A stretch of 64,000 nt of DNA from positions 1,878,581 to 1,942,580 of the forward strand of contig JBJCIZ010000239.1 of NCBI GenBank assembly GCA_051294375.1, in the 5' to 3' direction. The position numbers were made by a program, and so were the translations under genes. The stretch comes from Paraspadella gotoi (lineage: Eukaryota > Animalia > Chaetognatha). Position 1 is the first letter of the stretch. Each line of letters begins with the position of its first letter. Shown here piece after piece: positions 2,159 through 64,000 of the stretch. Under the pieces are notes generated by a model that was not told the origin of the DNA, searched no databases, and was given only the letters and a program-made list of their open reading frames with translations.

Positions 2159-3453
2159 CTGCGTTTCTCGTCCCTGGAGCAGCAGCATTGGTTCTTCTCT
2201 GCCTCACCGAGGGAGCGGGTGCATCTAAATACAAAATAGAGATAATTAAATATAAATAAACAAATAAATATATATATAAATCGAGATTTATATCTCCATT
2301 CGTAAATAAAGCTTTTTGCAGTTTTGTTTTTTTTTTTCCTGTTTTTTTCTACTTTGCTAAATTAAGTTCTACAACAAATAATTATTTTTTTTATATAAAA
2401 TAATATAGTGTATAGGTTCCCAACTGATGACCTTCTTATCTTAAAATATACATTAATTTAAAGTTTTGAACAGAGAGAAGAAAAAATATAATAAAATATT
2501 TAAAATAAAATTAAAAAATTACACTCAAAATATAAAGGAGCCCCTATAAAACTTTTACCCAGTATGTATCCCTATCACAACTTACGATTCTACTTAGTAG
2601 TCTTATCATTAAGGAAATAAAAAAATCAAAAAATCAAACATAACTTAGTCCCCCCCAAAAAATTAACCATTCCACCCCTTTCTGCTCAGCCTTTTAGATA
2701 TTGTGAGATTCTCATTAATGATTTTCTTACAGAAATGATGTGTGATATCTACTTAAAAAACTAGGGCAGGAAGTAATATAACCTTGGGTTGTATAGATGC
2801 TCCCTCTATTTCCAGAAGACAACACTAACAGCCCTCAGATTATCAAAAACCAAAATTAATATAAAATAATAATAGTGATAAAAATAAATAAATATTTTAA
2901 TGAATATTATAAAATCTAATACTTTAAAAAGTGAAACGAGTAATTTCGCAATTTTCATAAAATACAAGAGACCAAAAAGAGTCACGTCTCGCTGCGACTA
3001 ATCATTCCATCTATAGTTTCAAACTCACCGACGCCGCTTCCGCTCGGCGTCGGCTCCTTGGCTTCGACGCCGGGCGAACAGACAAGATGAACGGTAGTGG
3101 GGCTTCCGGCGTCGAAGGACCTCAACACGTCCTTCAGCACGAGATGATCTTGAAGCAGTCGGCCCGAGAAGATGATCTTTTGTTGGTGCTCCCGAGGTTT
3201 GCAGGGGTAAACCTCGGCGAGATGGGCCTTGAGTTTTTTCACGGTCCAACTACCTGCGGGGTTTTTAGAAAAGGGGAAATTAACCGATTAAGCAACGATA
3301 TTAACCGAATATTAACCTCCTCTTACCTTGACATTCGACCGTCTGGTCGTTGTACTTTTGATTGGCCGCTTTGACGACGAGCGTCATAGAAGAGGCGACG
3401 CCGGCGTCGGCGACGGCGACCCCGTCCGCGCCTTTAGGCAACAGGTTTTCCAT
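2159..3453 (-). CDS. HERPUD: HERPUD-like ubiquitin-like-domain ERAD protein, 5' exons only (remainder presumably left of window)
   Basis: ATG 3453. Exons ~3453-3328, 3253-3029 and 2225-2159 give MTLVVKAANQKYNDQ..WTVKKLKAHLAEVYPCKP..QKIIFSGRLLQDHLVLKDVL..TVHLVC, the HERP UBL domain. The last visible exon ends in a GTAAG donor. Confidence 0.8.
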
Positions 3454-3773
3454 GCGGATATTCTTTCCCTTTTAAATTTTCTTTTTTCCCAAAAAAATTC
3501 GGAGATAACGAATGCCCCCTTTTTTTTTCTTCAAACCCCCACAAATTTCTTTTTCGCGTCTTTTCTCTATCCGATGTAGTTAATCCATCTTTTTAAACAT
3601 TCGATATTAACTAAGAAACGTAAATTAGGCGAAATAAGGTGTTTGTGGTAAAATTTGAAAATGTACACGTACAGGCAAAAAAACAATATTTTTTTTTTAT
3701 CTAAGTCTCCATAGATGGACTAAAAGGTTTTCGATCTCGAGAAATCACGGATCAAATCACACGGGAGTCTTAT

Positions 3774-5168
3774 TCAGTCTTTCCGCAGCGGGAATCGCTC
3801 CGTCTCCACGCCGCGATTGGAGATCACGTGGAGCTCCACCTCGTCCCCGGTGTAGATGTCGCGCTCCGAGGCGGAGATGAAGACGTCCTTGACCAAGTTG
3901 ACGGCCTTCTCCCGCGAGAGGGGCTTCTTCTCCACGTTCTGCATGTTCTTGAAGCCGACCTGATTGTCGAGGAGGACTTGCAGCATGGAGGAGGCGGAGC
4001 CGCCCGCGCGGAAGGTCTCGCGCTCGTAGGATCCAACGGGATCGAAGGAGTAGACGCAGCCTTTGCCTTCTTCGTCGATGCCGGCGAGGATGTTGTAGGT
4101 GTAGTAGGGGAAAAATCGTCTGAGGGAAAATGATGTCATTTTATAAATTAATATGTATAATATATATTGTATAATATAATATATTATTATAAATCATATC
4201 CATCTTTATTGAAAAATTAATGTCGTTGAATTCAGGAGGCAATATAGCGTGTTTATTGCATTAACAGATAATATTTATATTAGTACTTTAGTGGTACCAA
4301 TTTTATATAATAAAACAAATAATATATCCCCGAAAGCACTATTGCACGGATTGCACTTTTTGCTCAATAACGGTTCGCAAAAGTTGGTAATCGCTTAGGC
4401 AATTACCACGGATTATTTTATGAAAGGTTTTTTCCCCCCCTCACTTCTTTTNNNNNNNNNNATCACTGCCTAAAGCTTAATTCGATAATTACAAGTCACA
4501 TAATTCGATCATTACGACGAACGAGACCGTGGGTCAAATTATTTTCAGTATGATGGGGAAATTGTCGACAGAAGTTGATGGTTGTCAGCGGCGACGTGCC
4601 TTTGAAGTTTAAAAGAGGACCGAAATAAGAAATAATAAACGACTAAACCCTTGGCTAATCAGTTATCAAACAACCTTGAAACGAAGAACGAGTTTTTCCC
4701 CCAAAAATCAAACCCAAACCACGAAACCGGTTTTCGCCTTCGAACCTGAAGTACAGCATGGTCGAAAGCATGGCGGCGATGGCCTTGGTCGTCATCTTCT
4801 TTCCATGCTCGTGCTCGTACATTTTCATCCTGACTTGAATCGTTTTCGTCAGGGTGAGGACGTCGCCGTGAAAACCTGAAAAAGAAAGGCTATTATTTAT
4901 ACCTTTCTCATTGATATACATGTTTAAAAAACGAAACGACTCTCTAACCGGTGCAAGCGAGCACGGTGTCGTCGCCGAGGCGGTAGGTTTTGGGCGAATC
5001 CCTGGAATGGATGGAGAATCCCTGACTGAGACGCGTGTCAGACGCGATGACGGAAAAGTCTTCGCCGGCGATGGCCAACGCCGTTCCTCCGTTCATCGCG
5101 TAAGGGGACCAGTAATGGGAAACGGGTTCTGTTGAAGATGGCAAGGTTTGTGTTAAAATGGACACCAT
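3774..5168 (-). CDS. PSMB1: 20S proteasome subunit beta type-1 (beta6)
   Basis: [29 protein letters not shown] / [19 protein letters not shown] / [33 protein letters not shown]. 3 exons. Confidence 0.95.
4452..4461. other. Assembly gap (10 N) inside a PSMB1 intron
   Basis: Run of n characters. Confidence 1.
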
Positions 5169-5206
5169 GTTGTATGGTCGCGAGGGAAGCGGGTTACTGA
5201 CCAGCG

Positions 5207-5253
<47 letters not shown>

Positions 5254-5670
5254 ATGCCACGCTCTCCCTCGAAAATCTCCCTCAATCTTTCTCATTGACA
5301 TGTCTTTTTTCTCGTGTCACGTCTTCACCGTTGCCTTTACATTATAAAAATACAATTTCATTATCACTGAGCCTACGCAGCGGACTTACCCGTTTTGTAA
5401 TCATCTATGCCTCCTCTTTCCATCGAAAGAGCCATTTTGTATGTTTATGTTTTGTTGTGTTTTTTTTTTTCAGAAACAGTCGAATAAACTGCAAAAAAAA
5501 AAAAAAAATGTTTTGAACCGAATATCGGCGAATTCGACTAAACATATTTATCATATCACATTATAATGTACAACGAGGAAAATAAAGTGATTAAGAGGCG
5601 GAGGCGACGAAAGGCTCGCGATAAAGTTTTTTTTTTTTTTTAAGCCAAAGAATTGGATGTCGTCTTTCTC

Positions 5671-7918
5671 TCATTCGTCGTCGGAATCGTCGTCGTCTTT
5701 GATCGCCTCCTTCCCGAACTGATCCGCCTCCGCGTAGACGTCCTTCGGGACCATCTGGTGGAGCCCCTTGGTCATTTCCCCTACCCAGCTCAGCTCCAGT
5801 TCGAACCGCTTGTCTTTCACCTGGAGATTTAGGATATGAAGGGATTCGTGAAGGCGTAAAAAGTTTTGAAAGGAGTCGGGGGGTAAGTGGATCATTGTAC
5901 CTCGTCGTGCACGGTGTGGATGATCTTGGCGACCTCCTTGACCAACTGACGACAGGTCAAGCCGGACATCTTCAGCTTCTCGATCTCCGTCTTGGCGTTC
6001 TGTTTGGCTTTCCCGCTGGCGCACCCTTGGTACCCGACGAAGGATCCCGAGGGTTCGATCACGAAAAGAACGGGACCTGGCGGTGAGAGCAAAGAGATAG
6101 GGGATCTAGTTTCAATCTGACCCATTACAAAAAACCAAGCCTTCGTCACCAGTGTCTTCGTCCCACGAAGACAACAGCATGGAGCAGCCGAAGGGTCGCA
6201 CGGCGGAATAAAGGGTATAAGCATGGACGTAGGATGCGAGTCTGTGGGCGAGGTACTTGATGGGAACGGCGCCGCCGTATTCGGCGCGGTAGTTGGAAGC
6301 CTCGTCCCGGGCGGTTTCGACCAGATGGCGAGCGTCGGCCAAGAGACCTTGGAGTGGGGAGAGATTGGACGGGGTCACAGGAAAGCTTGTTCGGAAACAA
6401 TTTCAGCCGATCCCTCGTCAATTTTTAATCGCACCGCGAGTACTCGTGGAGCAACTCAATGCGTTACTTTTCGGTCGATCGGTATATCAGTTATTATTAT
6501 TATTATTCAATCCCATTAGATTGAAAATAGTCATAACTCAAATAATAATTCATGAATTTATAAGACCTTTAAAAAATGAAAGACAAAATTCCAATGCATT
6601 ACGTATCGAACAAACGGCGCAACTCAGGATTGGAATCCCGTTTTTATTTATTAATTTATTACTCAGTGATCAACACATTTGCAGGACGGTTAAATAAAAA
6701 TTTCCCCGACCTATAAAACTTAAGTAATTTCGGCCGATAATCTACACCGTGATCATTTGAAACCCGCCGCTAGAAAAAATTCACCAAAGTATAAAGTAAA
6801 AAGATTTTAAAGTTTTGAAAAAAGATACTTAAAAACAAAACATACTCATTTTTTATGTATAATATCAGTTCTTTTGGTTTACTTCTACTTTAACAGGAAA
6901 AGGTAAAAAATAGCTTTGAAACTTATCTTCCGGCTCAATAGCCTAATGTTTTTGAATAAAAAAATTATATTTTACTTTCTGTAGAATTTATAAAAAAGTC
7001 TTTCAAAAAATAAATATAATATTTATATTGCCTAAAAACCCTTTAAAAACTATAATATGATACAATTTTTAATTCTGAAGTATAAAAAATATATTTTTGA
7101 AACTAAGCAGATTTAATAGATTTTATAGATTTTAACTATCTTACTTTTAAGAATAATCAGTTTTAAAGTATATTATTTTTAAAAAATTATAATCAATATT
7201 CCTAAATAATATAATACCCATATTAGCACTAATTAGTAATATTATATTTGTTTAACAGAGCCATCAATTCCAGGTAAAAAATTTCCCTTTAAAAATGGGT
7301 ATATCTTGTCTTTATATATCTTTTTTCAAAATGTTAAAATCTCTACGCGTTTTCATATGGTGAATTTTTTATAGCGGCCGGTTTCAAATGGTCACTTTGT
7401 ACTTTTCAACCTCAATCCCCTCAAAAAAATAAACACTACCGGCGACAGCCATTCCGATGTGACGGTCAATGTTGTAAATCCTCTTCATGGATCCCGATTC
7501 GTAAAGTTTGGACGTGATCAACTTTTCCACGCCGAAGACGACGCCGTCTCGGCAACGGATTCCCACGGCGGTACCGCTGTTTTCCACCGCCTGAGGGATG
7601 TGGAGGGCGGCGATTATTATAAGTTATATGTGTAGAAGTTGCAACTATATCGGAAGTTTGGGTAGCCAAGGTCATCGCTCTGACTACAATATTCTCTCGC
7701 TGAGAATTTGAGAAACATTTTTAAACTTGTTTCGGGTTCTTATTCAATTTTCTGGACTGAAAAACTTAATACTAAATATAGCTAAAGTTTAATTAACGAC
7801 GTTGGACTTTCCAATTTTCTAAAACTATCACCTTTAGAGCGTACTCGACTTGAAAGACTCGCCCGTCCGGAGAGAACTGAGACGCTGAGAGATCGTATCC
7901 CGTTCCTATGGAACTCAT
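5671..7918 (-). CDS. PSMA3: 20S proteasome subunit alpha type-3 (alpha7)
   Basis: [57 protein letters not shown] and an acidic tail. About 5 exons. Confidence 0.96.
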
Positions 7919-8141: not shown

Positions 8142-8813
<672 letters not shown>

Positions 8814-8929: not shown

Positions 8930-10266
<1,337 letters not shown>

Positions 10267-10580
10267 TTTTTTTTTTAATTAAAACTAAAACTAGGAATAA
10301 AAAATTTGAATTTCTTTTAATGTTTAACCAAATGGAAGCGGGTAAACAAGAAAATATGTATTTACTAAGCTTTAGTATTATTACTATAGTAATCCAGTAC
10401 TTGTCAAATATTTTGTATTCAAACTCGTAAGTCCTAATTTTTGTAGTTGATCCAAAGAAAAACTCAACTCAACATGAAAACCGGAGAAATGAAATTAATC
10501 TAAGTCTTTCTCGTGATTCGGACTCTCGGTACATCCGGGGCCTCCCCTCATCCGGGGCCTCCCCTCATGGACGCGACTGT

Positions 10581-12228
10581 TCAAGCGGTGGACTTGGCGG
10601 CGAGACGCTTGTCGCGCTCCTCGGCGACGGTCATGCGGACGCCCTTGCCTTCCGGGAGGGAGACCCAGGGCTTGGTTCCTTTGCCGATGGTGAAGATGTA
10701 GTTCAACCTGGGGAAAAAAGAGCAAAGCGGATTGTTGTTGAAATTATTGTTTCATGCTGATAATTAAAAAACGGCGACTGTTGCTGGTACTATATTTACT
10801 TATCAGCATATATTTATTTCATTTGTCTTTATTTAGTTAGGAAACGAGCGCTTCTACGAACGATTCATCCATAAATCTCATTTGCATGTTGCAGTGAGTT
10901 TAAATATATATGTATAAATATATAAATATATACTCGTTTAAACGTTTATACACTCTGTCTTTCACGGTTATTTCTTGTTTCTATACGTTCTTTACGTTCT
11001 ATTCTGTATTTGTTAGCGTCTAACTTTGTTGTTATCGTCTCTTTTTATTTTTATTAGCGACTTTTTGTTTTGTCTCTCTGATTTTTGCGTGTTTATTTAT
11101 ATATATGATGATTGTAGTTTTATATTACTATTATTAGCATTGGGGTCCATCCAAACTTTACTGTTACACATTATATTCTTACATTTTTTGAAATACATTT
11201 TACACCGTTTACGTTTTTATAACGTTTTTGTTTTGACACAATCTCTTTAGATTTAAACGTTACTACTAGTCGCGCCATCTTTCTTCACCTGGTGGCGAAG
11301 GAGTGTCCGGCGGCGTCCTTAACGTGAACGATATCGAAGGAACCCGGATGCTTCTCCCGGTGCATGATGGTGCCGACTCGACCCAAGTTACGGCCACCGG
11401 TGACGATGCAGATGTTGCCGGATTCGAACTTGATCCAGTCGGTGATTTTTCCGGAGGCGATGTCGACCTTGACGCAGTCGTTGCTCTTGATCAGAGGATC
11501 GGGATATCTGAGATAAGAGGGGGGGGGCGCAATCGAATGAAGCTTTGAAGTCGGAATCTAAAAAAAACATTTTTTTAATCGCTGCCTTTTCGGTCAGCGT
11601 CTCTTTCTTTATAACATAATTTTATGATTTATTTTTAAATAGCGAATCATTTATCATTAGAATAATATTTTTAAATATTTTTGAATCTAACAAAGTATTT
11701 TTTACATTTTTTTAAATGCCGCTACTATTGGAAGTGACAAGCACATCAATTTTTTATTAACATAAAATGAGCCCAATTTTCAGACCTGATCGTGCGTCCG
11801 TCGTTTGTCGTCAAGTACGGAATCCCCTTGGGTCCGACTGAGACCTTCTTGACAACGCAGAGCTTGTACGCGGCTTCCTCCTTGGAGATGCGGTGCACCT
11901 TGTAGCGGCCCTTGACGTCGTAGACGAGCCGGAAGTTCTCGCCCGTCTTCTCCATCTGGATGACGTCCATGAAGCCCGTGGGGTAGGTGTGGTCCGTACG
12001 GACCCGCCCGTCCACCTTGACCAGGCGCTGGGCCAGGATGTTCTTGACCTCCTGGTAGGTGAGGGCGTACTTGAGCCGGTTGCGCAGGAAGAGAGCCAGC
12101 GGGAGACACTCGCGCAGCTTGTGGGGTCCCGAAGAGGGACGGGGGGCGTAGCAGCCGCCCAGCTTGTCGAGCATCCAATGCTTGGGCGCCGCCACGCGCT
12201 TCATGTGCTTACGAGGACCGCGAACCAT
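10581..12228 (-). CDS. RPS4: 40S ribosomal protein eS4
   Basis: [40 protein letters not shown] / [15 protein letters not shown] / ..[16 protein letters not shown]. 3 exons. Confidence 0.97.
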
Positions 12229-12449
12229 CGTGAAAAACTTTGGATAACTTTTTTTAAAAAACTTAAAATCTGGAAAAAAAGAAAATTAAATAAATTCATA
12301 GGTTTATTCTTGACCAGTAAAATGCCTTGATCAATTGAGAATTAACGAAGAACAATACAGCGAAAAAACCAATGCCCAAGAAAAATATTAATAACATTCA
12401 ACAATAGTCATAAGTCGAGAAAAGTCTTAACAATGGGCCCCCATCATCG

Positions 12450-12917
<468 letters not shown>

Positions 12918-13191
12918 TTAATTTGTCAAAAGTATAACATGAAATAATCCTGCATCGAAGTGATGTAAAAAGGGTGTGAAACGATGCGAGAAACGCGAAA
13001 ACACGGCGTCTAGTGAATTCACCATAACAACGCGTGATTTTCGCTTTTCGTTATGGCAGTTTAAAAAAAAAAAGGAAAAACAAACACGACCTGACTATAA
13101 GAAGCATCTTGCTTTTTTTTTCGTTAGTTCATAGTAGAATTCGCAATAAATTCGTACATTTTAATTATTAAACAACTTGTTGTCTTTTTTT

Positions 13192-14749
13192 TTAAACGGC
13201 GGCAGCTCCAGATATAATTTCGATGAGTTCCTTGGTGATGACCGCCTGTCGCGTCCGGTTGTAGGTGATGGTCAACTTTTCGATCATCTCTCCCGCGTTC
13301 TTGGACGCGTTGTCCATGGCAGTCATTCTGTTCAGCGGGGGGGGGGAGAGTTTTAAATGGGATGAGATTAATGAAAAGAATTAAACTGGAAAAAGATAAA
13401 CGAACAGGTTTAATAAACTAAGTTTCGAAAAAACTAAATTAAGTTTTTTTCTTTTATGTCAATTTATTTCAATTTAACTAGTGTTGTAGTAATAATAGCT
13501 GGAATTTGTGGCAATTGAACAAAAACCCTAACTCTGAAAATACCTGGCGCTCTGTTCGCTGCAGGCGTTCTCCTTCATCGCGTAGTAGATGATGGAGGCG
13601 AGCTGGAACTCGGCGCAAGACTGGAGAACGTCCGCGTCGATCGAGTCGTAGATGGAGATGTCCTTGGAGTTCTCGAAGTGGGCGTCGCGGAACACCTTTT
13701 GGTTCGTCAGACTGTAGGAGACGACCGTCTGCGAGAGAGAGATGAAATTAAATCTCATTTGAATGTTGCAGTGATTAAGACCAACTAGTTAAATGACACA
13801 AATTCAAAATTTTTTCGTGTTTTAGTGAAAGAAGGTATGAAAACACACTATTGTAAATTAATTACAATCATACAGTTAGACACAGAAGCACATTTTTAGT
13901 AATAACTAGAAAAAGTGATGTTTTTTGTTATATTTTCGAGTCATAAGCTCACTTTGCTTTCACGTTTAGTATCGGGGAAAATATATACGCCACTTAAAGG
14001 GCCACGGTCACTATTAAATATTTTTCATAACAAATGTTAATATAAAGAGTAAAGACAAAAACCTTATTACTTTACCAACCTTAAACTTATTGTACAACAG
14101 AACCCCCGTGTCGTACTCGTATCCGCTGGACAAGATGGCGTTGGCGACGGCGGAGGCGTCGTTGAACGTCGGCGGCTTCCGCCCGTAATCCTTGATGGAG
14201 GTGTTGATGGTGTGGGGCCAAGACCTCTTCATCACTTGGGTGCACTTGTCTCCCACGAGGAACATCTGCGTCTCCACGTTGGGGGGCGTGGCCGCATGGA
14301 TGGCGCGGATGGCCTTGTTGACGCCCGAGTGAATCCCGCCGCAGAGGCCTCGGTCCGAAGAGATGGCCACGATGACCTGCTTCACCACCGGGTCGGGTCC
14401 TTCGGCTCCCGTCTTTTCGTAGACGGCGGCGGCGCCGGCGCCGTAGGCTCGGGCCGGCTTGAGGCGCCGCTCCGCCTGGGCGTACTTGGCCGCGCTGACC
14501 ATCTTCATGGAGGTGGTGATCTTCTGGATGTTCTTCGTTCCCTTGAGGCGAAGCTCGATCTCTTTAAGGGTGGCCATTCCTGAGGATCGTTCAATTCGGA
14601 AGATTTACTAAACACCATCATTAAATTTCGTAATTAAATTTTTGTTCTCGATCGGACTTACCCCTGACGGCGCCGATCGAGGCTGGCGCCCCGAGCGCCG
14701 CGTTGGTCCAGACGGCGTTGGCGCCGAGAAGAGCTCGAGTCAGCGCCAT
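13192..14749 (-). CDS. ATP5F1C: Mitochondrial ATP synthase F1 gamma subunit
   Basis: Presequence exon 14749-14662, then [42 protein letters not shown] and [31 protein letters not shown]. Confidence 0.96.
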
Positions 14750-15113: not shown

Positions 15114-15119
15114 GACATC

Positions 15120-18100
15120 TCAATCGTCCTTTTTCTTCTCGGGATCCTTGAAGTGAAGGAAGACGAAGGAGAAGAGAAAGAGTCCGATCATCATAGAAAA
15201 TGCGGACGCGTAGTACGGGTAAGCGGAGACGATGAAGCGTTCATACTGGGTGTGCTCCAGCGGACGGACGGACACCTTGAGGAAATGAGAGATGTACTTA
15301 CGTAAAAGAGAAGGCGTTGTCGTGATATATCTCGCAATTTTTTAACTTTTGTATGGAAAAATAAAACGTTTTGATAATCGCGTGTTTTTGGTTACATTTC
15401 TATGACAACCGCCCTCGCCATAAAAAAGAGACGCTCAAAAAGAGACCATTCAAACAACAATGAGAAAGCCATGAAAAGGCCGAGCGTGAAAACCTCACGA
15501 CTTACACGCTGCCCAGATAGAATCGATCTCAAACAAATGAACATCGCGCTCAGCTGAAAGAATCGAAGCCGGGAAACGACGATCGACGCGAAGCCAAAAA
15601 ACTTACACCGCAGCAGCACCAATGCTCTATCCCTTACTGCTCAGTCGTACTGGGACGCTGCAGCTCCTGCCGTTTACAATTTTCCTCCCCAACCCTAAGG
15701 TCTATGATTTTTCCCAAAAAAAACCTGCGAAGAGGAGTAGAGCCTCGTGAACCCGATCCTGTTGTAGTCGACTTTGAACTGATAGACTCCGTAGACGTCG
15801 GGCAACTTGAATCGTGACACGAATTCTCCGTTGACGCTGCCGTGCAGCGCCGTGCGGACGAAGGGATCGATGCGCACGAATTCCAGTTGGACGTCCTTAG
15901 CCTTGGGGGGGGGGTTGGGTTGGGGAATGGGTGAAGAAAATAAGTAATTAAACGAGGTTTTTATTTCATTATCTTCATTATCAGTATTTTTCCTTTCTTT
16001 ATAAATTTGAATAAAGATTTTCAACGAAATTTTTAATGAAATTAAATTAAATTTCAATAATTTGAATAATCAATTTAGATTTTTTTTTAAATAATATTTT
16101 GTTAAAGTACAATCCGAATTTTATTTACATAATTCATTAAACCCCCCTATACTACGGCCCACAAAACCACCTTGTACGGTTTCCACCCGTCCTGCCCCAA
16201 TTCCTCGATCTGGATCGAGTAGACGACGTCGTCGGTGACGGTGTAGGCGGCCGGAGGGTCGGTCTCGCCCTCTCGACGGTGGGAGACTTGGCCCACGCGC
16301 AGGACGCCCTTTTCCTTGAGGACCCACTGGGAGAGGGCCGTGGCCAAGGCCTCGTTGCTGGAATGGGTCGATTCCGAGCCCACGGGTTCAACGCTGAGAA
16401 ATGGGAATGGGAAGAATTAGTTAAGTTAATTTAGTAATACAATGGGCGAGTCCACGTCGACACGTAATTTCATGATTTAAAATTTTTTGTCTTTTGTTTT
16501 TAATAAAGATTCGCCTGTCCGTTCGACGGCAGAGTCACCTGGTGGAGAAAAACTCGTCGCTGAAAAAATCCAAGGATCCGACGAAGACCACGCGGGCGTT
16601 GTTTCGAGCCTGAGGAAGAGGGAAGGAGAAAAATAAAGGGGTGCGTTGAATCAAAAGAGAACCGCGTGGTTCTTTTCATTTCTGTTCGATTTCATATGGA
16701 ACAATTAAGATGAAACTGGTTCGTGGTTAGTCGTTGTTGTCGTTGTTATCCGCGCGGATAAGAGTTGTTTGAATATCATTAAATGATTGTAAACTATAAT
16801 AAATATTAAATAATAACTCATCAAATCGTATAAACATTTGAATGACATGTCTTTAATGTTGGAAAAAGAGTATCTAATTCGATTTATATGACTAAAACAC
16901 CAGTTAATCTGATCGAAATACTCAAAATACGATCTTTTTTCATCTCCCCCAATGGAACCTGCAAGGCGGAGATCAAGAGAGTGTTCTTGCCGACGGCGTG
17001 GGGGAACTCCTCGATCTTGGCGTCGGGATTAAAGGAGTAGGCCGTGGAGGAGGCCGTCAGGATGGAGAGAACCAGAGGGTTTTCCGGATCCGCCGTCATG
17101 GCCACTCCGCGGTAGAGGTACTTGGCCGAATTGTCCGGTTGTCCTTAGAAGAAAAAAAAAGAGCGATTGCTTTTTGGAGGAGACGATTTCTGATGGTCAA
17201 ACTGCGTATTATAATATATTATACTTTATAATTATATCATATATTAAATTTATAATTAAGCGCATATTATACGACGCATATAAAATGAGTTGGTAAAGCA
17301 ACTAAACAAAAATTAAAGCAACAAAGCAAATATTTGTTTTGACGAAAACAAGTTAGGTCCCATTTTTTTTAATAAAAAAAAATATATCATTTTTAATTTC
17401 ATAAAAAAATAGATCATTAAAAAAATAGTCGAAACTAGCAACCAACGAGTAAAATAGAAACAACAATAAGTAAATAAATAAACGGAAATTCTAACATATA
17501 AATCGCATCAATACGCAGCCTCTCTCCAAATATCATTTTTCTTCACCAACGATCATCGGCGCCCTGATCAAATTCTCCGCCTCGGCGACGACGAGCGTGT
17601 GCTTCCCTTCGTCCTTGACGTCGAAGCGGAGATGGTCGATGACGGCGGCGTTCTCCTCGTCGAACTCGACGCCGCATTCCGAGGCCAACTCCTTGATGGG
17701 TTCCCCGATGGAGGAGGCGGCGGCGACGAGGACGTTCCCTCCGCCGTCGATGAACTCCGTGATGGTGGCCACGTCGATCTGGCCGCCGAAGGCCTCCACC
17801 GACGGAGAGAAGAGGATGAGGTGGTCGTAGAGGAATTCTCCGTAGCGGATGAGGGTGAGGGAAGGATCGTCGGCCGTTTTGAAGGTCAGCTCGAATCCTC
17901 GGTCTGGAGTCAGGGCGGGGTGGGGGGGGGGTGTTTCAAGGTAGGATTCAGAAACGTGATCTCGTATCCCGACTCGACCCAATTTTCGATTTCGACTCAA
18001 ATTAAAATGAGGGGATGACGGAAAACTTAGACCTGACGACGACGACAACAACAACGCCCGCTCACCTTTAAGCGATCGAAAGAAGCGCGAGTGAGTCTCC

Positions 18101-18219
18101 TTGATGAAGTGAGAATCCAAAAGGACGAGCGTCTTCCGACCGGCGAGGGCGGCGCCGGCCGGGATCGCCGCCAAAATCGCCAGGCCGACGAGCAGAGCTA
18201 ATCGATCGTTGGAACCCAT
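15120..18219 (-). CDS. DDOST: Oligosaccharyltransferase subunit OST48/WBP1
   Basis: Signal peptide, [68 protein letters not shown] and a C-terminal TM followed by KKKDD*. Confidence 0.95.
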
Positions 18220-20614: not shown

Positions 20615-20672
<58 letters not shown>

Positions 20673-21471: not shown

Positions 21472-21547
<76 letters not shown>

Positions 21548-27500: not shown

Positions 27501-27610
27501 AAAGTCCTTTGTTTTACTCATAAACTTTTTTTTAAAGTTTCTACGATATGCAAATAGAATTAAAGGATTTCACATTAACACAAAATAATCTGGCGAGGAA
27601 TCGTCAATAA

Positions 27611-27646
<36 letters not shown>

Positions 27647-47078: not shown

Positions 47079-49064
47079 TCAATTATTCCACGGCGAATTC
47101 GGTCCCTGCCAACCGAAACCGCCGCCGCCGCCTCCGCCGCCACCGGACGCCGACTTTCCGTCGTTCCGCCAACCGCCGTATCCATCGTTCTTTACGTTCT
47201 CAAAACCGCCGAATCCCATCGACCGATTGGAGCCGAACTTGTCTCCGATTACGCCGCTGCTGCCGCCGCCGCCGCCGCCTCCGCCACTGTTTCCGCCGCT
47301 CATGTTGGCCATCATGCCATTCATCATCATCTGCATCATGGTTTGCATCATTGGATTCATCATGCTGTTCATGTCCATGCCGCCGCCGCCGCCTCCACCA
47401 CCTCCGACCATTCCCATGCCGTCTCGCGGCGCACCGAAACCGCCGCCGCCGCCGCCAGCCCCGTGACCCATCCCGAAGCCGCCTCGTGGGCCGTGGTGGT
47501 CGCGCTCTTCGACTCTTCGGTTCTTCGCCGTCGCGTTACTGATGTTTACCGAACAGTTTTTGATGAGGTGGTCCTCGCCCTGGGACGGAACGATCAATAA
47601 TTGATTCCATGTATTTTGATTGGTTTATTTATTGACCAATCAATTTTGAATCCAAATGGGACGACTAACTTCTGCTTGAAGAACTTGTGCTACCAAAGCG
47701 TCGGAGAAAGTGACGAACGCGAACGCCCTGTGAGGTTTGGGGATGAAAACGTCCGTCACCTGAGAAAATATATGATTTTTAAGATCAGCATCGGCGTATA
47801 TATGGTACAACCAATATAAAAATTATACATTCATTTAATAAATAAGCCTCCTTGCCCCCGACTTTCGACAGGCTATGGTGGTTTAAGGCCTCCATCACTA
47901 TCATAATTACAGCAGTAACATGGATGCTTTCAATCAAGAGTCTCGTATATTAACTCCCAGAGTACCTGGCTTCCCTAATCCCTATAAACGAAGAATGTTT
48001 CAATTACGTACATATAAATTTTTTTTTTAAACTGGAGGTTTATCTCCTACAAACTCACTTCGCCGAACTTTGAAAAGTAGTCTTTGAGATCGGTCTTGGT
48101 CAAGTCTTCGGAAACGCGGCCCACGAAGATCTTCTTGCTGATTTCGCTGTTAAGGTCTCCTCCCTTTGAGTTGGGAACGCGGACGTCGCACCAGCGACCG
48201 TCAATGTTGTGGCGCTGTCCGATCACCGCTTGCTGGACCTACGAGTATTGAGTAAGCGTGGAAGAGTTTGATTTTTAATATTTATAATTTTTAATATCCC
48301 ACATTAAATTTGATTAAATACAAAAATTATATTTAAATCGCCTCTCACGTCGTAATCTTTAAACTTGATGAATCCGTAGCCGCGACTCTTCCCGGTCTCA
48401 AGATCTTTTTTGACTTGAGCCATGACGACCTCGCCGAATTGCCCGAAATAGTCCTTCATGTCGTCCTCGGTCGTCTTCCACGGCAACCCTAGGACGATGA
48501 GGTCTAGAAAAAGAGTCCAGGGAAGGAGGGGGAACATTTTAAACGAAATCTTTTTTTTTTTGTTCTTTTGTTTTTTTAAATTTGACGTTTGATTTTCTTC
48601 ACCAGTGCATCTTCGGAATATATCGACGCGTTTCGTCTTGGCCTGACTGTCTTGGATGTCCATGTCGCCGCGTCGCTTGTTCTTCGGATAGACTGTGACG
48701 TAGAGGTGAGTTCCCCAGTCGTTGTCTTCCTGGAAGACTTTCCCATCGGTCACCCTCAATCCTCTCCAGCTGCCGGTCTCAGGCGACCTTCGAATAAAAA
48801 AAAAAAAAAAATTATTCGTTCAGGAAATACATAAGCTATAAATTAATGTGGAAGGGAAAGCAAGAAGGACAATATTGACTTCAGTTTAAGAATTGGACCA
48901 ACTTATTTTTTAAGCCGCACCAACCCCCCCCCCAACCTGAATTTAAGTCCCGAAGCTCCCGGATATTGCGCCTGCAACGTGGACATCGCCAAGGTCATGT
49001 CCGGCTCGAGGGGCAGTTCAGTCGGCTCCTCTGTCTCATCCTCGGCACATGCAATGTAAATCAT
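47079..49064 (-). CDS. TARDBP: TDP-43 homologue A
   Basis: NTD ([25 protein letters not shown]), RRM1 ([29 protein letters not shown]), RRM2 (KIFVGR..FAFVTF) and a Gly/Met-rich tail. Confidence 0.93.
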
Positions 49065-50323: not shown

Positions 50324-50513
50324 TCATTTCGACCATCCGCTTCCTCCCCATCCGGTCCCATATCCTCCGGTCCCGTAACCCCCGGAACTGCCGGATTTGC
50401 CGTCGTTGCTCCACCCGTATCCGTAGCTTCCGAAGGACCCGTCCCGCGAGTCGGGCTTTCCGGAAGCGTAGTTGCCGGCGGTCTTGTCGGCCGGCGACGA
50501 CCCGGGCTGCGCT

Positions 50514-50548
<35 letters not shown>

Positions 50549-53115
50549 CCCCATACCGCCCATCATCCCGGACATCATCATCATCTGCATCATGGACTGC
50601 ATCATGGCGGGGTTCATCATACTGCTCATGTCCATTCCGCCGCCGGCCCCGCCGCCCATGCCGCCGCCCGTCTGACCCGAGCCGCGGGGGCCGCCGTAGC
50701 CCGCCTGGACCGCTCCGTAACCGGCGTAGTTGCCGTAACCGTAATCACCGGCGCCACCAGCACCACCGCCTTGGTTACCTGGATAACCATTGTGATCGTG
50801 ACGCCCGCGGTCGGGGTTTTTCGCCGTAGCGTTGCTGATGTTGACCGAACAGTTTTTGATGAGATGGTCTTCGCCCTTAACATTTAACGAAATAAATATA
50901 ATGTTAGTCATTTTATTAATGTTATATTAGACTACTCACGGCGTCCTGCAAATCTTGAGCGACGTTTGGATCGACGAAGGTGACGAAAGCGAATGCCCGG
51001 TGGGGAGTTGGGATGAAGACGTCGGTCACCTGAGAAAATACAAATGTCAAATGTGTGTGGAAAAAATGTTTAATTATCTTCGAATTACAATTTAACATGA
51101 TTATGAAACTAGCCTAAAGACATTAACCGCTTCACCCAACTCACCTCTCCGTATTTGGAAAAGTAGTCCTTCAAGTCTTGTTTGGTGAGGTCCTCGGAGA
51201 CTCGTCCGACGAAGATCTTGCGACTGTACTGCGTCATCATCTCTCCGCCTTTGGAATTTGGAATGCGGACGTCGCACCATCGCCCGTCGATGCAATGTCG
51301 ATTGGTGAGGACTTTTTGTTGAGCCTGGAGGAGAAGGGTGGGGCGTGGACAAAAAGAGAAAAGTTAAGACTTTTGGACACGCTCAACAGTCAATACAGTC
51401 TTTATACCGCATTACAATACAAAAGGCTTTATATTAGAAAACAATTTCTCGCTTTTTTTTAAAAACCAGAATCGGTTTCCATGAATTTGTAAAATCTGTG
51501 GGATTGAAACTTCGAATTTGATAAAATCGTGCACACAAAACCTTTGATTTTTTTTTTATCTTTGATCAATGAATTTTCTGAAAGGTTCGATTGAACAAAA
51601 ATTGATTAGGTACCTCGAAGTCTTTGAAACGAATGAATCCGTAGCCCTTGGACTGCGAGGTCTTCTGGTCCCGCTTGATCTGCGTCATGACGATCTCTCC
51701 GAATTGACTGAAGAAGATCTTTAGGTCCTCCTCGTCCGTTTTCCACGGGAGGCCGAGCACGATGAGATCTGTTGCCCAATGGATATAATTAAATTAAAAA
51801 TAAATGTAAGAATTTAATATATTTCGTTATATATCAGATTTAATTATATTCTTTATATAAAAGAATATTCTTTCATAGTAATTCGTAATGGGGAGAGGGA
51901 TGTTAGTGTTGTCTTCTGTAATAATCTCTCATTAAAATCATTAACAGTATTCGCAGATATTCCTGGATTCCAACAAGATCAGTACAGGGAGGAATTTCAT
52001 TCATTCATCTATTTATTCATTCATCGCCCACCCACACCCCAGAAACTAACCGGAGCATCTCTGCTTGATGCTGTCGATCCTCTTGGTCTTAGCGATGGGA
52101 TTCTCCGCCTCCATCTCCGTGTCTCCCTTTCGTTTGTTGTCCTTTGGGTAGACGACGATGTAGAGGCTGTCGTTCCAGGAATTCTCCGGGTGATAGACTT
52201 TGCCCTCGGTGACTCGAAGGCCCCGCCAGCTGCCCGATTCCGATCTGCCCCGGGTGGGGCGGACGGAAATAAAGAAAAAGAAAATACTAGTTAAAGGGAA
52301 ACGGAAAAGAAAAGTAATTATAAATATTTACAGAAGGCTTCATATTATAAAATGTAGTACCCCTTTTTTGTAACCAGAATCTGTTCCCTGAAATTTTACA
52401 TTTAGAGTGTTAATGACTATATAAATGGAACTATCGAGGCGAATTTTGATATTCAACCCCCGGCCAGAGATACAGGGCCATGGGGGTGGATCCAGGTGCA
52501 TTGACGTTTTAAACATAAGAAAAAAACATTTTAGAACTAAAATTGATAAATTTGCAATAATTAAGCATGGTTGAAGATGCATGGTTCATCATTTTACTTT
52601 CAATTTTCCCAAATTATTCCAAATCTGACTAACTGCTGATGTTCATGAAGCTAAAAATTAAGGTAAATGAATATTTTTGAGGTAATAAATACGTTTTTGT
52701 GGAAGAGTAAACGTCTGTGCAACTGTTTAAAACAAAAATAATAAAAAAATTTGAAAAAAATTTTTGACCATTTGTGGCCCTCAGGTGCCCTTATCTCAGC
52801 TTAGGGGTGGAATGTAAAAATTCGCCTCGCTAATAATTTCATTTTTATATAATGTATACGGGGCAGAGAGAGCGAACACTGCCTTATGGAGTCGCGTCAA
52901 GCCGCGTCTAAAAAAATTAAGGTTAAAATAACGAAAATGAGAAAAAACAAGTGAAAGGCGAAATCAAAACCGGGCCGGACGATGTACCTGTACTTGAGTC
53001 CCGAGGCCCCGGGATACTGCGCTGTGAGCGTGGTCATGGCCAGGGTAAAGTCGGCCTCCAGCGGAAGTTCGATGGGTTCCTCGTTCTCCTCCTCCGCGCA
53101 CCGGATGTAATACAT
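50324..53115 (-). CDS. TARDBP: TDP-43 homologue B (tandem paralogue)
   Basis: [45 protein letters not shown]. Same exon organisation as copy A, with a G/Y/M-rich tail. Confidence 0.93.
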
Positions 53116-54971: not shown

Positions 54972-56800
<1,829 letters not shown>

Positions 56801-57225: not shown

Positions 57226-59086
57226 CTATTCAAATTCTTCTTCCCACTCGCAGACCCAATGCGCATGCGCGTGAGAAGCGTTCGACGGAGCGTTGATGCT
57301 GCTGCTGCTTCTTCCTTCGCTCTCCGCGCGGAGCGGCGGCGGCGTCGTCGTATTCGTCGTCGCCGACGGATTCTTCCGAGTCCTCGTCAGCGACGGGGTT
57401 TTCCGTGGGGCAACTCTCGTCGGAAGAGGAGGGAGAGTCGACGACCGATTCCAGGCTCGAGGGCGAGAGTTTCTAGCGACGGTATGAGAGCGTGTGGTTT
57501 CCGTCAAGAAAAGGGACATAAAAACCATTTTAATAATACATAATCCTCATTAATAATACATAATCCTCATTAAACGCCACCCCCCATACTTCAAAACCTG
57601 CGCCTCGAGCCAAGGGCAAGTCGCCGTCCTGCGACTCGTCTTTTTCGCCTCGTGACGATTGGAGATTTCCTCAACGATTTCGCCGAGACGAGTCAACAGG
57701 GTGTCCCACTGGACGGTTTAAAGTATCGGGTGGGCTTAGAGAAATCGGTAAATAAATTCCTTTAAGTAGTTTCCCCTTTTTCTTCCCAAATTTTCACAAC
57801 CGAAAAGTCTGTCAAATCCGCCCCCCACTGCTCTGAGCTCATAGTCGTCTATGTTAACGGAAACTCACCCCTCCCCCCCCCCAACACACGACCCCTTTCC
57901 AAAATGCCAAGACGCGCCTGGACGAGCGGAGTGCCAAAGGTGAGCTTCGTCTCCCTACAAATGGGGACGGTCTCGATGCAGCGAATCTCTTCCCACGCGG
58001 CGGAGGTGCGGCGGAGCGGCCGGCAATTGGCCAGCACCGTCCGCGGCAGCGTGCAGACGCAAGGACGGAACAAGAGACGAGACACGATAGCTATGGGGAC
58101 CATTTTGTGACTGGAGGGTAAAGGGGTTTCCAAAAGAAGTTTCAAAAATTCCAACATCCCCATTTTTTTCCTCTTAGCCACAAATACGGACCCGTTGCGG
58201 AAGATGAAGGGAAACCTGAGCCCCTCGTACCGAATGTAACCCCAACGGCCCAATGATTTGCTCCGACTTTTCGTCTTGAAGGAATATTCGAGCTCACGAT
58301 CATCGAGGGTCCGGACGACGACGGTTTTCCACGAGGCTTTGGGGTTGGAGAAACATGGCGACACCTCCTCGCGAGGTCTTTGACTAGAAGTAGTCGCGAG
58401 GGATAGATCAGTTTCTTTGGATTGCTCGCGCCCGGGACGCCAAGGTCCGTATCCCGCGGCCAATAGGATGCGTTTCTTCGGGGGACCGACGAACTCTTTC
58501 AAGCCACTGGAGCAGCAAGAGCAACTGGAGTACCGGGAGGAGCTGAAGGAGCTGGTGGAACTGAAAGAGCTCTGCGTGGAATCTCTCTCGGAGAGGGAGA
58601 AAGAAAACTCTCCGGATTCGGGACGGGAAATGTGGGAAATGGTGGAACTGGTCTCGATGTCGGGACACGAAGTGAGTCTTGACAATCGGAAGGATAATAG
58701 GAAACGACAAGAATGGGACCGGCGCGGCCGTTGGGAATGTAAGTTAAAATCTTAATTACAAAATTATTAAACTTTACATCAAACAAACAAGTTTTAAAAC
58801 ATAATAATACTGTACAGTACATAATAATACTGGACTATGTAATAAAATGTAATATTACTAATTATCCCAACGGTTCATACCGGCCCGAAAATGGCGACGA
58901 CGCTCGCGTCAGACAAGAATCGAAGAAAGCTCTGACAGTCCTTTCGACTGTCTGTTCGCCTGTCTGTTCGATTGCCTGCTCCACTGTTTCCTCGACTACG
59001 TCAAACTTGGTAGGTTCGTCCTCGGAGGCGTCGCTGATCCACTCGAACCCGTCGAGGATCGCCTCGCGCTTCACCACCGTCATCAT
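57226..59086 (-). CDS. Multi-exon orphan gene, unknown function
   Basis: GC-rich coding-like blocks with GT/AG boundaries at ~59086-58880, 58730-58177, ~58104-57889, 57708-57598 and ~57505-57226. No recognisable domain. Confidence 0.5.
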
Positions 59087-59353: not shown

Positions 59354-60783
59354 TCACATAAACATGTCGCCGTATCCGGGAGGAAGTTCGTGATCCGGAT
59401 CTGGACCGTAACCTCGTCCTCTCCCTCTCCCTGCTCCGCCGGGCGGAAAGGGAGCGAATGGATCGAATCTGGCGCCAGGCGGGATGGAGCCTGACGGAGG
59501 AAATGGATATAAAACGGTTTATTAAACCAGTTAACCAGGCGAGTAAAAAAGTCCTAAATCCTTACCAGGCGGTAGCGGTCTTCCATCAGGCGCCAAAGGA
59601 TACGGATTCCCTCGTCCAGCGACCCTCAAAGGATCGAACATCATCCCACCTTGCCCGCCGCCGAAAGGATCCAAGTCCGCTCGCCCGTAATCCCGCAACG
59701 GGTCGACGTTTCGTCCGTCGTAGCCGGAACTCCCGCGATACGGGTCAGTCATCGGGTCCGGTCGCCAATCGTCCGGCGCTTCCCTCTCCGGTCGATCCGT
59801 CGTTTCCGGCTTCGTCGTCGTCGGCACGAAGGGCTCCAAGATTTCTCTTCCGATCTGCGTCGTCAAATCGTCCAACTTCTTGAAGCGCCGCTCGGGTTTG
59901 AAGCTCGTCTCTCCGTCGACGACGTGGTGCCGCGGAACGAGGGAGACGCTGCGGACGACGTCAGTCTCCGGTCGCATGGCGTTGACCAGCAGCTCGTCGT
60001 CCACTCTGACGGCTTTGATGAGAATCACGTCCGCCGTGGAGGAAGGCGATTTGTAGGCGAGGGACCAACCCTCGGGGTCAGAGTTCCAGTTTGGGGGGAG
60101 GAGTTCTGAACCACCGCCCGAATCTACGTGAGAGAAGGTTGGAGGGATTGGTGAGGGTAAGGGGTGGTGGGGGGGAAGACGAGGATAATCGCTTTTTGAG
60201 GAGCAAGTCAGGTTGTCGGTTAAGATTCGCCCGCTAAAAAGAATACGTATACACAACTCACTTTTCAACTTTCTCGCAATTCTTAAACTCATTCTTCGTA
60301 TCGAAGAGGAAGCTACAATACTACCGGGTCCCCTCGCTTCCTTTGTCATTGGCCGAGTGGTCTAACGCGCCATCCCAATTCCGGGTTTAATACGGAAATT
60401 TTTTGACAAAAGAAAAAACGGAGACGGATTAACAGCATTAAAAGTAGAAGGCGTTCACTGTGGATCTGGATTTACTGTAGTACGTACTTTCTGATAATCT
60501 TCCCGTCTCCTTATTCAATGCCTACTCGATCTTTTCAACTAAGTTAACAACGACGACAACAAAAACAACTACGACCTCTCAACATGGCGGCGACGCGCGT
60601 GGCCGTCATCTCGCGGTCAGGGGGTGGTGATCCGACGCAGAGACATCCCGCGCGGACAAAGCACCAGTGGACGAAGACGACGAGGACGTCGAAGGCGTCT
60701 CGACAGTCGACCGAGTAGCGGGCGGTGAGAACCTCTAGCCACTGGGCGGACTGGGCGGACAGGGCGGAGGGCGGGGCCGACAT
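59354..60783 (-). CDS. PSMF1: Proteasome regulator PI31
   Basis: DVLVVFVHW..G..CVG, SELLPPNWN, GRADLDPFGGGQGGMMFDP, PPGARFDPF and PDPDHELPPGYGDMFM*. Confidence 0.92.
60345..60395 (+). pseudogene. Degenerate tRNA-like (Leu/Ser-type A box) fragment, possible SINE head remnant
   Basis: TGGCCGAGTGGTCTAACGCG followed by a decayed B box (GGGTTTAATAC). Too short for a full cloverleaf. Confidence 0.4.
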
Positions 60784-61600
60784 GACGACCGAGTTTGAGT
60801 AGTCCGAACACAAAAGGAAACTTCTGTCTTTTTATTTATTGTTATTCCTACTAATTTTATGAAATATATTCGAGATTAGACAAGGGATTTTTTCCCCCCA
60901 AATTGTGGACGATAAAAACGAAAAAATTGTTATACAACAGTAATTTGAATTTTTCTTTTTTTTTTTGAAAAAAAAAGTACGATAAAAATTGTTAAATTAA
61001 ATCTACAAGAAGATCGAACACACTGCGGTCTTTTTCGAAATTGTTATTGTCCTAGTGAAGAGAGACGGTTCTAAATTGTATTCCCAACTTTCCAAACACG
61101 CGTTTGTTCTTCAAATAAATACACAACTAAGCCACTTTCTGTACAGCATCGGCAAAAAGCAACGTTTTGTTTTTAAACAACCTCTTTGTCATAATTTAAA
61201 CTTTTTAAAAAACCGCGATAGAAGCCATTAAATTCTTCGTGCAGTCTTCGCAGCTTAGGGCAAGAAAAACCTGGAATGTTTGAAAAAAAAACAAACTGAG
61301 CAAATCGCTTTCGTTTTCCAGAAACACGAAGGGTAGCGAGCGTACATCGTGTAATGACTAATAGTATATAAATTTTTGTACTTTTATTTCTAAATAATTT
61401 GATGGACTAAACTATCGCTTCGAACATTGATTTGTTGTTTTTTTTGAAAAAAAAAAAATTTCGTTCGTGGAGAAAGAAAAATAGAGACAGAGACATTGGG
61501 TGATTGTAAGTTACAACTCGGTTTGCAATGTAACGTTTAATTAGGCAGACGCGCACACAAACACACGGAACCACATTCTCCAGGAAGGGTTTTGTAAGTC

Positions 61601-64000
61601 TCATTGAGTGGCGCACTGCACGCCGGGACCCCGGGGACCGTCTTCGTCGTCGTCGTCCTAAAGAAATAAAAGGTGAATTAAAATGGATTCTTTAATCTCA
61701 TTTGCATATCGTGAATTAGGAGAGAACACAAACACTCCGTGAACAAACGGTTTCTATTTGTATTCCCCATTTCCTTAAAAAAGTGACAATTTAACAGTCA
61801 CAACCGAATAATAAAAAAAAAGTGTCACCGTTATTTAAAGAAATCGATAAACCCATGTCAAAAAACAATTTATACAAGGCCAAAGAGCCGAGGTTCAAAC
61901 CTCCTGGTAGGCGGGTCCGCCGCTCCTCGCGGAGCTCCCTTCGCGTCTCGATTGGACGTATTCGTCGAGGTTCACCTCCTCAGTCATCTCGTCGTCGGGA
62001 ATGTCGATTTTGGGACGAGTAGGCAAAAACTTTTCGATTTTCTGTCGCGAGATGTTGAAAGACGTGATAAAGTTTAAATAAATATCATTTAAAATTACAA
62101 TTAGACATCGAAACTACTGAGAAAAGGTTGCGGGGGCAACGTTCCTCGACTTCGATCACCTTGATCGTTTGCTCGTCGGCGAAATGATTTTCCGGAAACG
62201 TGACGTCGAATTTGACGTAAAGATTTCCGCGTTCGTAAGGGTTTCTCAGGATGGGCATGCCCTCTCCCTGGACGATTTTCACGGAACCCGGGGAGATGAC
62301 CTGTGGACGAATATAGGAAAAATGATGATAATGACCACTTCCCCCCCCCACCAGAATCGATTAACGACGGCGAAGCTCACCTCTCCAGGGACGTGAGTGA
62401 CGACAATGTCGCGCCCGTCCAAATGTTTAAAGTTAATTTGAAAACCACAGAGAGCCTCCGTGATCCCGATCGAGAGACTCATCACCAGATCGTTGCCTTT
62501 TCTGGAATGAAAAACAAACACTAAACGTGCGTTCCGGAAAAAATGAACAATTTTAAAATGTGTCCAACAGAATGACTTGGAACAACTAAAACTAGAATAT
62601 GTTAAACGAATTAAACGTTCGAGAATCAATTGACTTTTATTCATTTAAGATAGCGAAATTAATATAAATAAAATCTATACTAGGAATAGGCTAAATAAAA
62701 AAAAACTAAAAACGTTAAGTTACCGAACGAAGACGTCATGTTCCGTCTGTTGCAAAACGATGATGACATCTCCGGGATCGACGCCGGGCGACTGAAGAAA
62801 GAGAAGATAAAAACTATGTACATCAACGAAAATACTTAACTTAAGATACAAAACTTACTAATCATAGTAAATCTCACCTGATCCCCCTCTCCCCTGAAGG
62901 GAATCTTGTGCCCGTCCCTCATCCCCTTGTCGACGGGGACTTCGAGGATCTTGGTCTCCTGTACAGTCTTCTTCCCCTCGCAGGTGTTGCACCGATCCTT
63001 TTCGCTGATCATTTCGCCTGCGATGAAAGGGTTAGAGTTGAACCATGATATGATGGAAATACCCTTTTCTTTTTGTTTATTGGCCAATTAGCTTTTTTTT
63101 TTTAATTTAATTCCCTTTAGATTAATTAAATACATTACTTTACATTCTATTTACATTTACCATGAACCAAAAGTTATTCCGGATGCTACATTTTACACTA
63201 TTTCCTTTTACTCCATTTTCTATCATTTTTCCCCCCCTTTTATTTCATTTCAATTGTTACCATTTCATTAGGTTCTATTATTCTTTTCTCTTTCTGTGAA
63301 TTTCAATCTTCTTGCCTTCTCCATCTCACCTTCTCCTCTGCAATCGGGGCAGACGCTCTGCATCTGCTGCACCATTCCGGGTCCCAATTGCCGGATGGAG
63401 ACTTTGACGCCGCGACCCGAGCAAGTCTTGCAATTGACCACGGCGCCGCTCTTGCCTCCCTGCCCGTTGCACTTCTTGCAAATCACGTTTTTTCGCATTT
63501 GCAGTTTCGACAATTTCCCGTTGTAGAGGTCTTCCAAATTGACTCTGGAAGGAATCGATGTATGATCGAATAGTTAACTCGTTATTGACCAAGTCATTCA
63601 TTCACTCCTCACTTCAAAGGGTGCAGAGTGTCCTCTCCCTTGGTGGGTCGCCGCCTGCTCCTACCACCCATTCCTCCCATGCCTCCCATGCCGAAGGGCA
63701 TGCCGAAGAGACCGCCGAAGCCGCCGGGGCCGCCACCGCCGCCGAAAAGATGTTCGAAAATATCCGGCATGTCGCCGCCCTGCCCTCCTTCCCGGAGACC
63801 CTAAATAACGATCGAAAATACGCCACGTAAAGCAATGGGTAAAAAAAACAGTACTATATAACCTTATCTATTACTCAATAATTAATATTACTAACTTGAA
63901 GGCCGACTCTATCGTACATTGCTCTCTTCTCTGGATTGGATAAAATTTCGTGAGCGAAAGAGACTTCTTTGAACTTGTCTCCAGCGTTCGGGTTTTTGTC
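61601..64000 (-). CDS. DNAJA: Class A Hsp40 (DNAJA1/2-like), 5' end outside window
   Basis: [21 protein letters not shown], a G/F region, [30 protein letters not shown] zinc motifs, GEGMP and CaaX CATQ*. Confidence 0.95.

Follow-up and report, generated by a model that had tools for sequence, protein, structure and literature searches.

A co-oriented run of 25 genes in the arrow worm Paraspadella gotoi, with a tight nine- or ten-gene block as its likely clearest operon

The candidate operons described in chaetognaths (arrow worms) number 2,151 and take in 5,061 genes, and the longest one published for Paraspadella gotoi consists of nine genes, with ribosomal, ubiquitin and proteasome genes among them (PMC12460157). 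For Spadella cephaloptera, PMC2481426 describes an RPS14-PCNA operon in which 3 bases separate the poly(A) site from the acceptor, two copies each of RPS27A and RPS4, and other genes on bacterial artificial chromosomes (BACs) that are remarked as clustered in the same orientation. In Table S5 of that source, most entries of which are predicted genes matched in SwissProt, a 158-kb BAC is given in 24 rows: 14 oriented host genes are all on the plus strand, one has no orientation, and the remaining nine rows, read here as mobile elements, contain all four minus-strand entries. The accessible parts of PMC2020476, PMC2566580, PMC2776167, PMC10282587 and bioRxiv 10.64898/2025.12.04.692336 give no operon size. 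In a literature search that fell short of most subscription papers, no paper was found in which the lengths of same-strand runs are measured for chaetognaths, nor one on the largest trans-spliced operon or on consecutive same-strand genes with a spliced leader in animals, and no title among the matches listed dealt with directional gene clusters in animals. Here, a stretch of 64,000 nucleotides of the P. gotoi genome (assembly GCA_051294375.1, contig JBJCIZ010000239.1, positions 1,878,581 to 1,942,580), referred to below as the window, is described, in which 25 consecutive genes, housekeeping genes for the most part, lie on one strand.

The 25 minus-strand gene models are arranged head to tail from 64000 down to 2159 (~62 kb), and none of them contains an internal stop. 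The exon models were built by script, 11 of them being corrected by hand, and the whole window was read. Coding sequence makes up 43% of the span, and the models hold 91 introns (89 GT-AG and 2 GC-AG) with a median length of 160 nt and a maximum of 1092 nt. A family search, in which 46 of the 110 longer exons were compared with Pfam and the PDB was searched as well, supported 22 of the 25 genes at E<1e-4; the match was weak for two more (the CARD and Death gene and the FERM gene), and one model (57230-59086) had none. Five introns skipped in RNA-like contigs have CT..AC ends on the plus strand, so that splicing of ATP5F1C and RPS4 on the minus strand is confirmed; the models of these two genes were seeded by the contig joints, so the joints are no independent check of them. 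On the plus strand, nine long open reading frames tested against Pfam gave no match, and the 14 segments that exceed 12 bits in a codon model, itself trained on minus-strand exons, all face minus-strand exons. The run includes two tandem pairs (TDP-43 and RPS27A, two copies each) and therefore amounts to 23 independent units rather than 25. It has a likely convergent plus-strand gene at one end, and its other end lies outside the window. The earlier note on this DNA had claimed 25 consecutive same-strand genes, and the open exon models together with the Pfam and PDB matches bear it out.

The co-oriented run is real and beyond chance. In a null genome of 21,072 genes with random orientation, 0.0006 runs of at least 25 genes are expected per genome, or 0.0025 for 23 units. 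When the published operon counts are built into the null, with 5,061 genes in 2,151 candidate operons and the others placed at random, the expectation rises to 0.012 (0.037 for 23 units). About one such run per genome would need a same-strand persistence of ~0.7.

The features are given below from high to low coordinates. Some names used here are finer than the Pfam family, namely RAB6, RCC2, FRMD8, SLC35E, MRPL43, PSMA3 and PSMB1, and are those which we take the genes to bear.

61601..64000, minus strand: DNAJA-type Hsp40, whose 5' end falls outside the window (Pfam DnaJ_CXXCXGXG, DnaJ_C)
59354..60783, minus strand: PSMF1/PI31 proteasome inhibitor (Pfam PI31_Prot_N, 4.8e-11)
57230..59086, minus strand: unrecognised gene model with unsure exon limits (300-codon open frame at 57852-58751)
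54972..56767, minus strand: Rab GTPase, first intron GC-AG (Pfam Ras)
50324..53115, minus strand: TDP-43 copy a (Pfam TDP-43_N, RRM_1)
47079..49064, minus strand: TDP-43 copy b, tandem paralogue of copy a (equal-length exons 66-71% identical)
43789..46232, minus strand: YOD1/OTU1 deubiquitinase (Pfam OTU1_UBXL, OTU, zf-C2H2_OTU1_C)
39304..42853, minus strand: VPS51 (Pfam VPS51_Exo84_N)
38428..39036, minus strand: SPC24-like, single exon (Pfam Spc24, 3.1e-7)
35309..38133, minus strand: PSMD12/RPN5 (Pfam PSMD12-CSN4_N, RPN5_C)
32201..34473, minus strand: SLC35E-type transporter (Pfam TPT)
31355..31963, minus strand: single-exon gene with weak CARD and Death matches (Pfam E 0.0047 and 0.0053, below the curated cut-offs)
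28235..31047, minus strand: RIOX1/NO66 (Pfam JmjC_2, RIOX1_C_WH)
24514..28077, minus strand: RCC1-repeat protein, one GC-AG intron (exon model, Pfam)
19420..23391, minus strand: FERM-domain protein, 12-exon open model (weak Pfam match to the FERM F1 lobe, E 0.0023)
15120..18219, minus strand: DDOST/OST48, with which the tight ten-gene block opens (exon model, Pfam)
13192..14749, minus strand: ATP5F1C, ATP synthase gamma (Pfam; three introns skipped in RNA contigs)
12903..13191, minus strand: ATP5F1C>HINT spacer, 289 nt (crossed gap-free by a spliced contig, record 3 of sequencing run X1)
12450..12902, minus strand: HINT, single exon (Pfam HIT)
12229..12449, minus strand: HINT>RPS4 spacer, 221 nt (crossed by the same contig as the ATP5F1C>HINT spacer)
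10581..12228, minus strand: RPS4 (Pfam; two introns skipped in RNA contigs)
10267..10580, minus strand: RPS4>MRPL43 spacer, 314 nt (crossed by the spliced RPS4 contig, record 2 of run X1)
9667..10266, minus strand: MRPL43-like, single exon (Pfam L51_S25_CI-B8)
8930..9563, minus strand: RPS27A (ubiquitin-S27a) copy 1 (exon model, Pfam)
8142..8813, minus strand: RPS27A copy 2 (Pfam; differs from copy 1 at 1 of 157 residues)
5671..7918, minus strand: proteasome alpha subunit (Pfam Proteasome_A_N, Proteasome)
3774..5435, minus strand: proteasome beta subunit (Pfam; 10-N assembly gap in the last intron, 4452-4461)
2159..3453, minus strand: HERPUD-like, three exons, ending at an open donor at 2159 (PDB matches to the ubiquitin-like domains of HERP2 and HERP1, E 3.7e-14 and 9.7e-12)
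65..1436, plus strand: likely gene with exons 65-1076 and 1273-1436 (375-codon open frame, in-phase GT-AG intron)

The 24 stop-to-ATG spacers have a median of 310 nt and fall into two groups, 16 of them measuring 103 to 462 nt (103, 116, 157, 221, 223, 235, 237, 267, 267, 289, 294, 307, 314, 320, 370 and 462) and eight measuring 817 to 1856 nt (817, 835, 846, 935, 1122, 1200, 1259 and 1856). The longest are those of RAB6>TDP-43a (1856 nt), TDP-43a>b (1259 nt), FRMD8>DDOST (1200 nt) and RCC2>FRMD8 (1122 nt). All 14 gaps of 103 to 370 nt counted earlier, including those of 103, 116, 157, 221 and 223 nt, were reproduced to the base; the description of the spacers as tiny fits the shorter group and fails for the longer one. 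From DDOST to HERPUD, nine consecutive spacers of at most 370 nt join ten genes into a tight block, and a cut at 500 nt divides the whole run into nine blocks of 1, 3, 1, 1, 1, 3, 4, 1 and 10 genes. Within the tight block, ATP5F1C, HINT, RPS4, MRPL43, the two RPS27A copies, PSMA3, PSMB1 and HERPUD are nine genes of the same kinds as those of the published P. gotoi operon, and this part may be that operon or its orthologue, the gene kinds having been compared with the text of PMC12460157 only. The locus as a whole presents both the head-to-tail, one-strand genes with short spacers of a spliced-leader operon and the tens of unrelated genes on one strand of a directional cluster (25 genes, or 23 with the tandem pairs merged).

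RNA evidence was sought between 9600 and 14990, where three spacers lie wholly inside the compared stretch. Seven sequencing runs were taken as RNA by guess, none being recorded as such. Run X1, which contains 0.54 of the words of 4600-14599, yielded a spliced contig of 1975 nt (14793-12170), which lacks the three ATP5F1C introns and passes through HINT into RPS4, and a 1149-nt spliced contig over 12199-10192 that skips both RPS4 introns and reaches 75 nt into MRPL43; neither has any letter that differs from the window, and depth in this run is zero in three intron-interior bins. All three spacers (ATP5F1C>HINT, HINT>RPS4 and RPS4>MRPL43) are thus present in spliced RNA contigs. X1 gives no cover at 14794-14990, in the DDOST>ATP5F1C spacer, or at 9600-9625, towards RPS27A, and such holes prove nothing. 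From runs X2, X3 and X5 came pieces that were foreign or of low depth, and none of the pieces listed bridges a spacer. The two X1 contigs break within the first RPS4 exon, where they overlap by 30 bases (12170-12199), a break of the sort expected if RPS4 had a second copy or allele.

Two proteins of the tight block were also placed among their relatives. For ATP5F1C, five relatives at 73-81% identity were found, all of them JGI, Logan or MERC records without a species name (MERC is marine), and named animals reached at most 62%. The RPS4 protein matched a 147-member cluster at 91-93%, and named single-copy matches reached at most 79%; the many-membered JGI, Logan and MERC clusters of close relatives hold 62 and 147 members, and none of the members read has a species name. 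In trees of 31 RPS4 rows and 21 ATP5F1C rows picked from the matches, the latter built by a quick method, each window protein falls in a fully supported clade with only species-nameless, transcript-sized records, and named tunicates, nematodes, a flatworm, annelids, molluscs, arthropods and deuterostomes stand outside it. A long-branched lineage of this sort, frequent in the JGI, Logan and MERC records and lacking named proteins, would fit arrow worms. None of the 260-aa RPS4 relatives compared has a mass equal to the 29,417 Da published for Spadella S4. A metagenome scan with an ATP5F1C relative, covering 3 of 64 parts, returned at least 79 loci; among the matches listed none was close, the best segment reaching 64%.

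The reading to which we lean, if by no wide measure, is that several leader-resolved operons and single genes share one co-oriented domain, of which the tight nine- or ten-gene block, from DDOST or ATP5F1C to HERPUD, is likely the clearest unit. RNA polymerase II would read a handful of units on one strand, namely the tight operon, some single genes and a small number of operons with three or four genes each, with introns spliced in cis. Each precursor would be cleaved at its poly(A) sites and re-capped by the spliced leader at the next AG. Leader addition and the number of promoters are what we infer here, as is the nature of the eight long spacers, which would be a mix of long 3' untranslated regions (UTRs) and unit boundaries. 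The run would stay one-way because genes without a promoter of their own can survive only if they lie downstream of an existing unit and share its strand, and a new promoter arising inside a unit would split it without inverting it. Candidate signals can be seen in some spacers: several have a T-rich tract and an AG shortly 5' of an A-rich stretch and the ATG, in the HINT>RPS4 spacer an AATAAA precedes a candidate acceptor (exon side 12269, score 10.3) by 39 nt, and the candidate acceptor between the TDP-43 copies scores 14.5.

A number of observations weigh against this reading. With a matrix trained on 87 introns, which has low power in T-rich DNA, the acceptor scores of the 24 spacers sum to 117.8, compared with 109.1 +/- 18.2 in dinucleotide shuffles; they are also no better than those of the opposite strands or of intron interiors, and nine of the 24 lie above the lower quartile, compared with 8.0 by chance. 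Five of the 24 spacers have a poly(A) signal that is followed by a YAG at a distance of 14-60 nt, the shuffles giving 5.0 +/- 2.0. Since both the matrix and the poly(A)-YAG test are at chance, trans-splice acceptors are not established from the sequence. The 24 loose ends listed from four runs, which had 27 further ends, contain no spliced leader; this is no test of leader absence, because contigs cannot show 5' ends. The two-gene contigs do not prove a single transcript, for overlapping UTRs look alike, and the RNA nature of X1 was guessed, although its contigs are spliced. Among the relatives of RPS4 and ATP5F1C, no named chaetognath sequence was recovered. Moreover, separate short operons alone do not explain the run, because the published counts give only 0.012 such runs per genome. 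The earlier suggestion of long polycistronic units, one or more in number, that a spliced leader resolves stands only in part: RNA over three spacers and the known chaetognath operons speak for it, whereas no leader was seen and the acceptors are at chance. The earlier note makes no mention of the operons already in print for arrow worms.

The alternative that survives best is that most of the run (at least 20 genes) forms one or two giant polycistronic units of the kinetoplastid kind, in which the long spacers are long 3'UTRs and outrons. This we regard as unlikely. No spacer exceeds 1856 nt, and a cut at 1300 nt leaves only two blocks, of 4 and 21 genes; the nine blocks left by the 500-nt cut would all fall on one strand with P 0.004 per locus, and the low expectation under the operon-aware null (0.012) points the same way, as does the 158-kb Spadella BAC, where the oriented host genes, all 14 of them, share a strand. 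In addition, six of the eight long spacers have AATAAA or ATTAAA within 300 nt of the next ATG, but these may belong to A-rich 5'UTRs, and the paired poly(A)-acceptor test is at chance. The published maximum is nine genes under a 250-bp spacer rule, and a persistence of 0.7 would yield about one such run per genome without a single promoter. It is doubtful that arrow-worm housekeeping genes lie in kinetoplastid-like clusters, with this run as one or two units of at least 20 intron-bearing genes. If it were so, the longest operon known from the phylum would be surpassed more than twofold by a unit that earlier counts missed through the 250-bp rule, and the Spadella BAC, one-stranded as it is, would provide another case. 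Should the long spacers prove promoter-free, distance rules would greatly underestimate the size of animal operons, and the kinetoplastid mode, with housekeeping genes under little transcriptional control, would be approached by an animal.

Less probable again is a row of tightly packed monocistronic genes, each with its promoter inside the 3' end of the upstream gene, where overlapping UTRs fuse the contigs and leaders, if present, only trim 5' ends. It agrees with the failure to see a leader and with both negative acceptor tests, and contig fusion through overlap is common in compact genomes. However, genes with their own promoters need no shared strand, and random orientation gives only 0.0006 runs of 25; spacers of 103 and 116 nt offer little space for a promoter between the 3'UTR of one gene and the 5'UTR of the next; and introns with a median of 160 nt and up to 1092 nt argue against an extremely squeezed genome. 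A transcript assembly as the source of the stretch is ruled out by its 91 introns, and an array of tandem copies only by the mere two pairs among 25 genes.

Several further observations concern individual genes. The TDP-43 paralogues (47079-53115) are an old tandem pair with a shared six-exon layout and a Met-rich, helix-like segment in the Gly-rich tail of both. The middle exons of the RPS27A copies (8415-8642 and 9178-9405) are 99% identical, and the first and last exons 80%, a pattern that suggests recent gene conversion or local assembly collapse. The single-exon gene at 31355-31963, with CARD followed by Death, has an adaptor-like layout amid housekeeping genes, and the FERM gene has a three-codon upstream open reading frame (23391-23416) ending just 5' of its likely start. 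The model at 57230-59086 had no match in Pfam or Atlas. A hidden plus-strand gene at 58384-58752 was considered and rejected, as it has no Pfam match and lies inside the 300-codon minus-strand frame. For the likely plus-strand gene at 65-1436 there was no Pfam match and no relative among 1.84 billion representatives. The open donor of HERPUD at 2159 lies 720 nt from the end of this convergent orphan, which either bounds the run, HERPUD being cut short, or nests in a HERPUD intron.

The introns contain repeats as well. An octamer-like motif, ATGCAAATGAGAT, occurs with at most two mismatches at 13 sites from 10875 to 61707, compared with 1.8 expected; all 13 are intronic, on both strands, and none is in a spacer. 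It is probably a short repeat, sometimes forming a hairpin pair (22480-22516). A dispersed repeat of 210-260 bp is present in three introns (27108-27315, 37150-37404 and 45160-45418), the copies being 83-95% alike and one of them inverted; in one copy there is a weak match to twister-P1 (E 0.11, far under the gathering score). An Rfam scan gave two matches at E<=1, both far under the gathering score, and no spliced-leader RNA or snoRNA. A second intronic family was recognised by eye in RCC2 (~25480-25670), YOD1 (45740-45830) and TDP-43b (47800-47980).

Nematode operons are enriched for growth genes and hold up to about eight genes. The spacing described here resembles that of C. elegans operons, in which downstream genes begin ~100 bp past the upstream 3' end; nematodes mark downstream genes by a dedicated leader, SL2, whereas chaetognaths are without a position-specific leader. 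Kinetoplastid clusters are long one-strand runs of unrelated genes that end at a strand switch, and they comprise from tens up to hundreds of genes, which have hardly any introns, are generally trans-spliced and are not known to have promoters of their own. The present run is likewise one-stranded and likely closed by a convergent plus-strand gene, but its genes bear 91 introns and its transcription as a single unit is hypothetical.

Tunicate operons (Ciona and Oikopleura dioica) share with this locus head-to-tail genes of loosely related housekeeping, translation and cell-cycle functions, and they use one leader type at all positions (PMC11067885 and PMC7986045). According to the same sources, the operons of Ciona differ in having six or seven genes at most and almost no intercistronic DNA. 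The named tunicate RPS4 lies outside the clade of the window protein. The kinds of genes, the duplicated RPS27A and the one-strand arrangement agree with what is published for chaetognaths. Compared with the published chaetognath operons, the co-oriented run here extends to 25 genes, and leader addition is something that we infer. Summarizing, operons of this kind are already known for arrow worms; the unusual remainder is the length of the co-oriented run, which is the part that the published operon counts do not predict.

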